Part shown: positions 13,714 to 28,593 of the stretch, in pieces
Numbering within the stretch: position 1 is the stretch's first letter
How the letters are laid out: each line of letters opens with the position of its first letter
Assembly: GCA_040771865.1 (NCBI GenBank)
Contig: JAXGZF010000005.1
Coordinates: forward strand, 372,001-430,132
Length of the DNA: 58,132 nt
Direction: 5' to 3'
Origin: Desulfobacterales bacterium
GTDB taxonomy: Bacteria; Desulfobacterota; Desulfobacteria; Desulfobacterales; UBA2245
Made by a program: the position numbers and the translations under genes
Notes under the pieces: model-generated
What the model saw: only the letters and a program-made list of their open reading frames with translations
What the model was told of the DNA's origin: nothing
The model's database searches: none

Positions 13714-15741
13714 TCATGCGATGGCCTTGTCCGCGGTCAATTGCACCAGTTCCAGGACGTCTTTGGCCAGAAGCCGGCTCACATGATGATACCGTGCGCC
13801 CAAAGCCCTGGCGACCTGTTGCATTTCACCGGAACTCTGTGACCGAGGCTTGGTGTCGATCGCCACAGATGCGATGCCGTCCTGTCGGATATGATCGGAC
13901 AGCGCAAGCACCTCATCCATGATCTTGCACCCCTTTTGAAGGGGCACGTTGGCCTCCCCGTCCGATATCACCACCAGAAGCGGATTTAAATCCGGGTCCT
14001 TGGCGCGTTCGGCCTTGATCAGCTGCCAGGATTTCATCAGGCCGTCGGCAAAAGGCGTCGCGCCGCCGGTGGGAAGACGCTGAAGCCGTTCGCGGGCCAG
14101 CGTGACGCTGGAAGTGGGCCGCAGGAGAACCCGGGCCGATTCATCGCGAAAGGCCACCACGGCGACCCGGTCCCGCTTTTGGCAGGATTTGGCCAGCAGC
14201 GCCAGCGCCGCACCCTTGGCCGCGCGCATGCGAACAACGGTTCCACCGCCCATGGAATCCGATGCATCGACGGCAAAGACTACAAGCGCATTCTGGGGCC
14301 GTTTTCTGATTTTTTTGCGAAGGTCCTCGGCTTGCACGCAGAACTCGCCGTTGGCGCCTTCCTGGGCCTGGCGCAACATGGCCGCGCGCATCGTGGCGTC
14401 AACGGCCACGTCAAATCCGTTTTCCCCTTTTCGAACCGGGACCGAGCGCACATATCGTCCTGTCCGGGCCTCGGTCGTGTTCCGCTGCCGCCTGCCTCCG
14501 TAACTTCCGCCATTGGCTTTGACTTCTTCAAGATCGATCTCGTCTACGATGACGCCTTCGTCCGGATCATGGGTTTTTTCTTCTTTTTTTTTTAAGAAGG
14601 AAAACAGCGAATTTGTATAGCCGGCCCCCATGGCGCCGGGAATGTCCCGGTCGATCTCGAAAATATTGTCCTCGTCCTTTTCTTCGGCGTCCTCTTTTAA
14701 AGACGGATCATCAGATAGCACCCGTTTGATGGCCGAATTAATTTTTTCAGTCAGTTGGGCGGAGGCAGAGAGCGAGGCGTTCTGAATGCGATGGGGAAGT
14801 ACATAACGCGCGGCTTCCGCAATATGGCCGTGTTGCACCCGGGTTCTTTCGGTCAGGGCCGCCAGGGCTCGAGCGGTTTTCAGAATGGCGATGTCCGCCC
14901 GATGGCCGTGTACATCGACCTCGACGGCCAGTCTGACCGCCATTTCCAGTAGATCGTCCGGAATTTCGATTTTTGCAAGGTTGTTCCGGGCGTATAGAAT
15001 CTGTCCGGCAAGCAGGTCTTCCACCGGCTGCCATTTTTTCTGAAAACGGTCGGGGTCCTTTTCGAATTCAAGACGCTGGCGAATGACATCCTGCCGTTCC
15101 TTGACATTGGTCAGACCGGTTACGGTAACATTGAGACCGAACCGGTCGAGGAACTGCGGCCGAAGATCTCCCTCTTCGGGGTTCATGGTGCCGATAAGCA
15201 TGAAGCGCGCGGGATGCACATAAGAGATGCCTTCGCGCTCAACCACGTTGACTCCGGATGCCGCGGCATCCAAGAGCATGTCCACCAGGTGATCGTCGAG
15301 TAGGTTGACCTCGTCCACGTAGAGAATGCCCCGGTTGGCGGTTGCCAGAAGTCCGGGTTCAAATTTTCGGGTTCCGGTTTTCAGCGCGTGTTCAACGTGC
15401 AGCGCGCCGACCAGCCGGTCTTCGGTTGCGCTCAGGGGAAGTTCCACCACGGGCATGCGGCGGAAAACGGTTTCAAGTTTTTCTCCGGACTGGAACCGCG
15501 CAAGGCATTCCTCATCCATGTTTTCAGGTTCGGATGGAGAACAGTGATACGGACAGCCGGCGACGACCTCTATGGGGGGAAGAATCTGCGCCAGGGCACG
15601 AACGGCGGTTGATTTTGCAGTGCCCTTGTGGCCGGAGATCAGAACGCCGCCGATGGACGGATCGACGGCATTGAGAACCAGGGCCGTCTTCATGGATTCC
15701 TGACCGACAATTGCGCTGAACGTATAAATATGGCGTTTCAT
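13714..15741 (-). CDS. ChlI/ChlD-family metal-chelatase subunit: AAA+ ATPase plus VWA domain
   Basis: FSAIVGQE, Walker A GHKGTAKST, ATEDRLVG, Walker B LYVDEVNLLDDH, MNPEEGDLRPQFLDRFG; VWA DASDSM, GGATP, ISDGEAN. Confidence 0.92.
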   Translation of the reverse strand: MKRHIYTFSAIVGQESMKTALVLNAVDPSIGGVLISGHKGTAKSTAVRALAQILPPIEVVAGCPYHCSPSEPENMDEECLARFQSGEKLETVFRRMPVVELPLSATEDRLVGALHVEHALKTGTRKFEPGLLATANRGILYVDEVNLLDDHLVDMLLDAAASGVNVVEREGISYVHPARFMLIGTMNPEEGDLRPQFLDRFGLNVTVTGLTNVKERQDVIRQRLEFEKDPDRFQKKWQPVEDLLAGQILYARNNLAKIEIPDDLLEMAVRLAVEVDVHGHRADIAILKTARALAALTERTRVQHGHIAEAARYVLPHRIQNASLSASAQLTEKINSAIKRVLSDDPSLKEDAEEKDEDNIFEIDRDIPGAMGAGYTNSLFSFLKKKEEKTHDPDEGVIVDEIDLEEVKANGGSYGGRRQRNTTEARTGRYVRSVPVRKGENGFDVAVDATMRAAMLRQAQEGANGEFCVQAEDLRKKIRKRPQNALVVFAVDASDSMGGGTVVRMRAAKGAALALLAKSCQKRDRVAVVAFRDESARVLLRPTSSVTLARERLQRLPTGGATPFADGLMKSWQLIKAERAKDPDLNPLLVVISDGEANVPLQKGCKIMDEVLALSDHIRQDGIASVAIDTKPRSQSSGEMQQVARALGARYHHVSRLLAKDVLELVQLTADKAIA
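14584..14593 (-). other. A10 homopolymer, a putative programmed frameshift/slippage site in the chelatase gene
   Basis: Minus strand TTC TTA AAA AAA AAA GAA (FLKKKE) at the AAA+/VWA boundary; both alternative frames stop within 16 codons. Confidence 0.65.
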
Positions 15742-26178: not shown

Positions 26179-28593
26179 CTATCGAAAATCCTTAACATTT
26201 TTGGCGAACTGATCGAGCTGCGAATAGATCCGCTGATGGAGGGTGTTTTCAGGAAATTTTTCCTGGGAATCGGGTTTGCCGGCAACTGCGCCGGTCAGTA
26301 TTTCCAGGGCCTCGTCCACGGTTTCGACGGCCCAGACATGGAAAAGCCCTTTTTGGACCGCATTGACCACGTCATCGCGAAGCATCAGGTGGGCCGTGTT
26401 GCTTCTGGGGATCAAAACACCCTGGCCGGGTTGCAGCCCTTTGGCCTTGCAGATGTCGAAAAAGCCTTCGATCTTCTCGTTCACGCCGCCGACGGCCTGA
26501 ATCTGGCCATTCTGGTTGACGGATCCGGTGACGGCGATTTCCTGGCGGATAGGCGCCCGGGCAAGGGCGGAAAGCAGGGCGTAAAGCTCGGCGGATGAGG
26601 CGCTGTCGCCCTCAATTCCCTGATAACTCTGTTCAAAAACGATGCGGGCGGAAAGCGAGAGAGGGAATTTGCGGGCATAGGTTTTGGTCAGAAAACCTTC
26701 CAGAATATGGATGCCCTTGCTGTGAACGGGGCCTCCGAGTTCAACCGCCCGTTCGATGTCGATGATTCCGCTTCTGCCGGGTCCTACGCTGGCGGTGATT
26801 CGATTGGGTGTTCCAAAGCAGTAATTGCCGAGGCTTATAATCGACAATCCGTTGATCTGTCCGATGGCTTCTCCGGCCACATCCAGAAGCAGGGTTCCCC
26901 GGACCGTCATTTCCCGAAGGTGCTCCTGCATCTGGTTGGACCGGTAAATCTGCTGGTCGATGGCCTTTTGAATATGCGTTTTCGAAATATGGTCTGCTGC
27001 TTCCTGCCCGGACCAGTAGTTGGCTTCCCGGATTACATCCGCCAGAGCGCCGAAATGGGTGGAGAGTTTTTCCCGATCCCCGGAAAGACGCAGCGAGTAT
27101 TCTAGCAACCGGGTCATCGCCCCGGAGTTCAGGTGTTTCAGGGATTCCTTTTCACAGAAGGATAGCGCGAAGGCGACCACGCTTCGAACATTTTCATCCG
27201 TGCAGGGCATCGAGGTGTCGAAATCGGCCTTGACCTTGAAAAGTTCGGTAAACTCTTCATCCTCTTCCTGAAGCAGATAGTACAACAGGTGCCGGCCGAT
27301 CAGAATAATCTTGGTGTCAAACGGAATCGGTTCGGGGCGAAGGCTTTTGGTGACAAGGGCGCCGGCAAGCTCGGCGGGCTCTTCGATTTGAATCATTCCG
27401 CTTTGAATCGCCCTTTTCAGGCCCTGCCAGCTGAATGGGTGGGTCAGCAGGCTTTCGACCGGGAGTACCAGATAGCCGCCGTGGGCGCGGTGAACGGCGC
27501 CGGGCTGGATCATCAGAAAATCGGTGTGAAGCACGCCGTATCGGGTTTCCTTCTCGATGCGTCCGAAAAGGTTGCCGTAACTGGGATTCAGTTCGATCAC
27601 CACCGGCGCTCCGGTCTTGCGGCTGTTGTCCACAAATACGTTGACCTCGTATTTTCGAAGATGCCGTGACAGGGCCGTGGCCGGGGGAACTGGCACCTCG
27701 GGTTCTTCGGTTTCGACCTCTTCTTCGCTTTGAGTTTCGCTTTGAAACAGGGCGATGTTTTCCAGGACGTCTTTCAGCACGGCGTTCAGATAATCGACGA
27801 CGTCCGGAAAATCCTGATAAAGCTGTTTGACATCTTCGATCGGATCCTCGACCGCCATTCGGGCGATTTCCCGGTCGAGTTCCTGAAGTTTGTCCTGAAT
27901 CTTGCGCTGCATTTGACGCAGCTGTTTCATCCCAGCCTTGATATCGGCTTCCAGAGCCTCCTGGCGCTGCTGTAGATTCCTTCGATCCGCAGCGGACATC
28001 TGGGCCACCTGATCATCGGTCAGGATTTTTCCGTCTTTCAGGGCGATGATCAGGATACCCAGTTTTCCGTTTTTGATGCGCATGTCCTGGGCAGCCGCCT
28101 GTTGGTTGAGCGTTTCTATAATCTTGTTCTTCTCATCGGAAAACTCCTTGATGACCGCCTCGCGCCTGCTGCTGTAATCCTCGCTTTCAAATGCCCTGGG
28201 AATCGCCGAGCAGAACTGGTCGATCAGACTCTTCATGTCCTGCTGGAACTTGCGGCCGCTGCCCGCAGGCAGCCTGCAAGACCGGGGTTGAGACGGGTCC
28301 TCGAAATGGTTCACATAGCACAGATCCGGCGGCGGAGATTTTTCACAGGCGTGCTGTTTCAGAAATGATTCCACGGCGGTCATCTTGCCGATGCCCGGCG
28401 GACCGGCGACATAGATGTTAAATCCCTTTTCTTCGATTCCCAGCCCGAATTGAAGGGCCGCAACGGCCCGATGCTGACCGATGATTTCGATCAGCGGCGT
28501 GAAGTCCGCTTCCGCGTCGATTCCCAGTTCCGACAGATCAAACCTTCTTTTAAGGTCAGAGGCGGATAACTCCCTCGATTTCGCTGGACCCAT
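26179..28593 (-). CDS. Lon-family (S16) ATP-dependent protease-like protein: AAA domain plus Lon protease domain
   Basis: IIGQHRA, Walker A GPPGIGK, AHGGYL, GQINGLS; catalytic Ser in EGDSAS and Lys in VNEKIEGF. Confidence 0.9.
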   Translation of the reverse strand: MGPAKSRELSASDLKRRFDLSELGIDAEADFTPLIEIIGQHRAVAALQFGLGIEEKGFNIYVAGPPGIGKMTAVESFLKQHACEKSPPPDLCYVNHFEDPSQPRSCRLPAGSGRKFQQDMKSLIDQFCSAIPRAFESEDYSSRREAVIKEFSDEKNKIIETLNQQAAAQDMRIKNGKLGILIIALKDGKILTDDQVAQMSAADRRNLQQRQEALEADIKAGMKQLRQMQRKIQDKLQELDREIARMAVEDPIEDVKQLYQDFPDVVDYLNAVLKDVLENIALFQSETQSEEEVETEEPEVPVPPATALSRHLRKYEVNVFVDNSRKTGAPVVIELNPSYGNLFGRIEKETRYGVLHTDFLMIQPGAVHRAHGGYLVLPVESLLTHPFSWQGLKRAIQSGMIQIEEPAELAGALVTKSLRPEPIPFDTKIILIGRHLLYYLLQEEDEEFTELFKVKADFDTSMPCTDENVRSVVAFALSFCEKESLKHLNSGAMTRLLEYSLRLSGDREKLSTHFGALADVIREANYWSGQEAADHISKTHIQKAIDQQIYRSNQMQEHLREMTVRGTLLLDVAGEAIGQINGLSIISLGNYCFGTPNRITASVGPGRSGIIDIERAVELGGPVHSKGIHILEGFLTKTYARKFPLSLSARIVFEQSYQGIEGDSASSAELYALLSALARAPIRQEIAVTGSVNQNGQIQAVGGVNEKIEGFFDICKAKGLQPGQGVLIPRSNTAHLMLRDDVVNAVQKGLFHVWAVETVDEALEILTGAVAGKPDSQEKFPENTLHQRIYSQLDQFAKNVKDFR

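Follow-up and report, generated by a model that had tools for sequence, protein, structure and literature searches.

In dnaX, the long product, tau, is encoded in the default frame. Slippage on poly-A brings nearby stops into frame, and the result is the shorter gamma, which has the N-terminal AAA+ part in common with tau; both products occur in one complex. The slippage is transcriptional at an A9 run in Thermus thermophilus, and E. coli uses a -1 frameshift at A_AAA_AAG (PMC3711429). A poly-A site has also been described in chlD genes. Antonov et al. 2013 (PMC3711429) reported 23 frameshifted Mg-chelatase genes (fs-genes), and in their E. coli reporters of the family's sites the frame shifted at 63% with 11 A, at 40% with 9 A and at 10% with 7 A. 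The same chlD site appears in the review of Atkins et al. 2016 (PMC5009743) and in Kuznetsov et al. 2022 (PMC9227772). In the available text of these sources, fs-chlD consists of two overlapping ORFs, of which normal reading gives the short product and a -1 shift the long one.

The initial annotation of the locus described here had stated that programmed frameshifting in chlD-like genes was already reported, and the available text of these three papers does describe the site. Recoding at the poly-A run of chlD is therefore not new; the in-frame, long-by-default state is its less usual form. A further paper on frameshifted chlD genes was reportedly published by Antonov in Mol Biol Evol in 2020. 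The available text of PMC3711429 cites fused homologues solely as evidence for a common function, and the words "in-frame", "fused" and "fusion" are absent from that of Kuznetsov et al. 2022 (PMC9227772). We found no mention of in-frame poly-A chlD genes in the available text of the three papers or elsewhere in the literature searched.

In this report, we describe a chlD-type gene of a Desulfobacterales bacterium (assembly GCA_040771865.1) that has an A10 run where related genes slip frame; this single gene therefore probably makes both a long and a short protein. It occupies positions 13714 to 15741, on the minus strand, of the stretch of 58,132 nucleotides that was analysed (the window). ORF translation and family profiles define a protein of 675 amino acids in which a ChlI-type AAA+ module is followed by an acidic linker and a VWA domain, which is the architecture of fs-chlD. 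Residues 2-342 (14716 to 15738, minus strand), with the Walker A motif GHKGTAKS and the Walker B motif YVDEV, span the full length of ChlI in PDB 6L8D (E 1.6e-97) and of BchI in 1G8P (E 3.7e-94), the alignments to the ChlI/BchI structures scoring 319-331 bits. The acidic linker, which separates the two domains, ends in ...NSLFSFLKKKEEK. The VWA domain comprises residues 484-663 (13753 to 14292, minus strand) by its match to the C-terminal domain of BchD (fragment PDB 2X31; E 6e-22, 81 bits) and residues 487-644 by the Pfam VWA profile, and a DxSxS MIDAS-type motif, VDASDS, can be read from the translation. The top NCBIfam profile is TIGR02442, "putative cobaltochelatase", which matches residues 6-653 over model positions 1-639 of 641 at 704.3 bits, under its curated cut-off of 779.45. 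The protein thus resembles the Mg-chelatase subunits of known structure (BchI/BchD and ChlI; PDB 1G8P, 2X31, 6L8D, 8OSF) in having a ChlI/BchI-type module at its N-terminus and a BchD-type VWA domain at its C-terminus. It differs from them in that this D-type protein retains a fully ChlI-like ATPase module and that its genome has no ChlH/BchH/CobN partner.

Two details of the AAA+ module deserve comment. GTAKS in place of GTGKS in the Walker A motif was considered as the mark of a dead ATPase and ruled out, GxKGTAKS being the usual form (of 52 standalone chlI rows inspected, 51 carry GTAKS). Separately, residues 63-79 (15505 to 15555, minus strand) read GCPYHC...EEC, with Cys63, His66, Cys67 and Cys79 in an insertion; in the alignment to structures, cyanobacterial ChlI has no cysteine there. 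The C-x3-C is conserved across the gene's clade, and the motif may be a metal site.

The slippery run (T10 on the template strand) lies at 14584 to 14593, minus strand, from the third base of codon 383 to codon 386, and contains zero-frame A_AAA_AAA heptamers. Codon 383 is TTA (14595-14593), codons 384-386 are AAA AAA AAA, and codon 387 is GAA. Thus the run follows the whole ChlI-like module and precedes the VWA domain, exactly where the initial annotation had placed it, as the ORF, the homopolymer and the domain alignments agree; the tested fs-chlD sites, of A7-A11, likewise stand where the ChlI-like part ends. The zero frame encodes all 675 residues, which bears out the view of the long form as the default. 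The gain of one A, or a -1 ribosomal shift, would lead to the TGA at 14567 to 14569 (minus strand) and a protein of ~391 amino acids ending in ...LKKKRRKNP, whereas the loss of one A, or a +1 shift, would lead to the TAG at 14544 to 14546 (minus strand) and one of ~398 amino acids ending in ...KKKKKKPMIRTKASS (tail PMIRTKASS). These ends, too, had been given in the annotation, and recomputed frames reproduce them. The frame that ends at the TAG is the counterpart of the short-product frame in split relatives (cf. L018, L020).

The length of the run was examined in independent DNA. A wastewater metagenome contig from a different study (run X3; 697 nucleotides) covers 14293 to 14989 with no gap and one substitution, and the orthologue in a second species of the same genus (G001; 92% protein identity) has an in-frame A10 of identical length. 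Since both show A10, the run is not an assembly error, and the caveat of a mis-assembled homopolymer that the annotation had attached to it falls away. Across the 2.98 Mb of the genome, runs of A or T number 329 at length 8, 38 at length 9, two at length 10 and none beyond; in the window, the A9 word is unremarkable, with 2 overlapping matches against 1.8 expected. The other genomic A10 lies outside the window (C7:323581-323590), in the ATG AAA AAA AAA ATT that opens a 152-aa frame. From the codon usage of 991 long ORFs (Lys AAA 52%, AAG 48%; Leu TTA 2.4%), the probability of TTA AAA AAA AAA given L-K-K-K is 0.0034.

The longest stretch of identity between the gene and its congeneric G001 orthologue, 62 nucleotides at 14546 to 14607 (minus strand), covers the run together with the tails of both alternative frames, and contains the sole difference-free 60-nt window among those tested in 10-nt steps. 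The two genes share 87.6% nucleotide identity, with a mean of 7.2 differences per 60 nt; a p of ~0.07 estimated from that identity gives the observation modest weight. No significant stimulatory RNA structure was found when the 90 nt after the run were folded (z = +0.79), and the weak hairpin that CUUCUU and AAGAAG can form about the run was not significant either (z = -1.07). Contigs of two metatranscriptome runs cover only 13714 to 14211, outside the run, and may even derive from DNA.

Of 151 genomes searched at the level of the order, 32 gave a match at E<=1e-30, and the closest relatives were inspected at the junction. In a FastTree tree of 143 N-terminal modules only (11 of 154 rows were left out as cut or too short), the gene groups with frameshifted chlD genes, apart from conventional chlD. 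It belongs to a clade of seven genes, four fused and three split (SH-like 96), whose sister is a split Omnitrophota gene, and all eight have at least eight A at the same junction (A8-A13). Among the fused genes, ours and that of G001 have A10, that of G098 has A8, and that of G017 has A13; the split genes, each with its VWA part in the -1 frame, have A11 (G051) or A9 (G104, L044 and L045). The runs of A8-A13 are retained in all four fused lineages at ~65% protein identity. The initial annotation had listed a conserved poly-A, split versus fused frames in orthologues and the lack of a separate chlI among the checks of its reading. The run is present in 8/8 genes, four fused and four split, and no separate chlI was found in our genome, which is 98.3% complete and where our gene is the sole ChlI-type module. 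The remaining Mg_chelatase match in the same genome belongs to a frame of the YifB/ComM type.

The clade has no common genomic neighbourhood. When the flanks of six members were compared, no neighbour was shared by all: serB and fabH flank the gene in our genome and G001, and the other members lie beside LysR and AcrB, PdxS/PdxT and arginine decarboxylase, cytochromes, a HerA-like gene, or AbiEii/RloB. Elsewhere in the window, at 26179 to 28593 (minus strand), a gene encodes an 804-aa Lon-like protein with LonC-helical, LonB-type AAA and Lon_C protease domains.

The position of the run also matches that in split relatives farther afield. A scan of genome contigs confirmed 593 of 602 stretches as relatives, of which the 80 best were retained. 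Among these 80 are 33 split genes, mostly of Anaerolineae, whose two frames overlap across an A-run (A7 in five, A9 in 23, A10 in five); 32 require a -1 shift and one a +1 shift. The latter, a Chloroflexia fs-chlD (L107:3980-4101) with A9 and its VWA part in the +1 frame, is alone in this among the 33. More in-frame runs were also seen, an A10 in one gene of Leptospirales and an A9 in each of two genes of the order searched above.

Whether in-frame runs go with the lack of a standalone chlI was addressed in 401 genomes of the phylum, from which 100 genes were fetched for analysis. Exactly one ChlI-type module is present in 60 genomes; three of these genes are cut by contig ends, 16 are standalone chlI, 18 are split and 23 are fused. 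In the 18 split genes the frames overlap at A7, A9 or A10, and each gene requires -1. Among the 23 fused genes, six carry A9/A10 in frame within codons 356-367, and the other 17 (L129, L134-L139, L141, L146-L148, L151, L157, L159, L164, L174 and L176) have neither a run above A7 nor a separate chlI. Genomes with at least two modules contribute 40 further fused genes, of which 32 have a standalone chlI in the genome, four belong to genomes whose only modules are two fused ones, and four are unclassifiable. No run of at least nine A occurs in the 32; four of them have A8, at codon 363, at codon 370 and, in two, at codons 403-406, a conserved FKVKKI-type site. An in-frame A9/A10 is present in two of the four genes whose genomes hold two fused modules and no other. 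In both of these genomes (G288 and G376; genes L212/L227 and L211/L226), which have two fused chlD-type genes each and no standalone chlI, the shorter gene (590 aa) has its run at codon 357 and the other gene has none.

Taken together, in-frame A9/A10 occurs in 8/27 fused chlD genes without a standalone chlI in the genome and in 0/32 with one (Fisher p = 0.001, uncorrected for relatedness), an association that is overstated because the eight positives represent about three lineages. In this sample the in-frame runs of at least nine A were seen only in genomes that lack a standalone chlI. The annotation's premise that these enzymes need a short I and a long D subunit is nevertheless weakened, since 17/23 fused genes of single-module genomes have neither run nor chlI, a figure which means that the short form may be dispensable.

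The genome context casts doubt on a role in chelation. The initial annotation had framed the gene as part of a class I chelatase, a framing that fails here, since no candidate for the large subunit CobN/ChlH (PF02514) was found in the 98.3%-complete genome. Nor did a search for three families of corrin-ring markers, CbiK, CbiX and CbiG (CbiG_C), yield a match. Without these components a chelatase role for the gene product is doubtful, and "chelatase subunits" is a name taken from homology rather than a demonstrated role. The same combination, with neither large subunit nor corrin-ring genes, is the "stage 1" genotype of Kuznetsov et al. 2022 (PMC9227772), as far as the available text defines it. 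Within the clade, G001, G051 and G104 have neither CobN nor a separate chlI. CobN is present in G017, where the clade gene is the only source of I and D, and in G098, which has a second chlD-chlI-cobN cluster and yet retains A8.

Our preferred reading, to which we assign a probability of about 0.65, is that the A10 is the conserved poly-A recoding site of the chlD family, present here in frame, and that slippage on it would yield short forms beside the default long form. The site exists, it is homologous to the frameshift site of the split relatives, it is conserved, and a separate chlI is absent. From these observations we infer that slippage reaches a useful level in this organism and that the short and long forms cooperate. 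Standard decoding would give the 675-aa protein with its ChlI-type AAA+ module, linker and VWA domain. The likeliest mechanism is that RNA polymerase, on the T10 template, adds or drops A in a considerable fraction of the transcripts, so that those with A9, A11 or A12 would run into the nearby stops; ribosomal -1 slippage on A_AAA_AAA is a possible extra contribution. The predicted products are short ChlI-like proteins of ~391 (tail RRKNP) and ~398 amino acids (tail PMIRTKASS), which may assemble with the long form into an I/D-type AAA+ motor, like BchI with BchD. With slippage close to one half, a level that the reporters with 9-11 A suggest, fused and split states would yield similar mixtures, and this would explain the toggling between them within the clade.

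The gene shares with fs-chlD its protein architecture, the poly-A site at the junction of AAA+ module and linker, the tree clade, the lack of a separate chlI and the "stage 1" genotype (as given in the available text). It differs in being a single 675-aa frame rather than two overlapping ORFs; its normal reading is long and slippage would make the short form. That is the arrangement of the Thermus dnaX gene, with the long product in frame and the short one by slippage. The gene and complex are unrelated to dnaX, however, and the dnaX products have been shown experimentally, whereas those of our gene are predicted.

Other explanations of the run must be weighed. It might be a relic. A one-base change within the run would have joined the two frames of an ancestral split fs-chlD, only the long protein would now work, and the run would persist by descent as a Lys-rich linker. 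The 17/23 single-module fused genes that have neither run nor separate chlI speak for this account, for they suggest that the long form alone may suffice, and so does the intact ChlI-type ATPase module that the long form retains. A neutral run should, however, decay by AAA-to-AAG changes, given that 48% of Lys codons in this genome are AAG, and four fused lineages nevertheless keep A8-A13. Further, the run is lengthened here by a rare TTA codon, and no in-frame run of at least nine A is found in the 32 fused genes beside a separate chlI. We regard a mere relic as unlikely, though not negligible.

Less probable still is phase variation at the level of DNA, in which replication slippage would toggle cells between a fused (long) gene and a split gene with the short form as default. 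Poly-A is slippery for DNA polymerase too (PMC3711429, in the text available), and the frame state of close relatives does vary with run length (A9, A10, A11, A13). But the assembly, the independent contig and a species that differs at 12% of the gene's nucleotides all have the same A10, the opposite of what a hypervariable tract would show, although contigs hide minority variants. The least credible account is an assembly artefact, with A9 or A11 as the real length of the run and an ordinary split fs-chlD as the gene. Homopolymers are prone to error, and the split relatives are a single A away; against this stand the gap-free independent contig, the equal run of G001, and a further six genes with A9/A10 in frame, all from the 23 fused ones in genomes with a single module.

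The recoding site of the preferred reading, probably with two products from one gene, has consequences for annotation. A gene caller annotates one ordinary protein here and would miss the probable second product, while in the split relatives it calls two genes. With its A8, A9, A10, A11 and A13, the clade also offers a natural series in which run length and default frame can be set against subunit ratio.

As an orphan, with no large subunit, corrin-ring genes or conserved neighbours, the gene extends a published question, that of the function of a ChlI/ChlD motor on its own. We tentatively suggest, as a possibility somewhat short of even odds, that in-frame poly-A chlD is a distinct and recurrent mode of expression rather than a decayed fs-chlD, and that the I/D motor serves a client other than a chelatase in strict anaerobes without CobN/ChlH and corrin-ring genes, our organism among them. 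Should slippage on A9-A13 runs approach one half, the default frame would matter little: changes of a single A would let lineages move from a long default to a short one and back, and both proteins would always be made.
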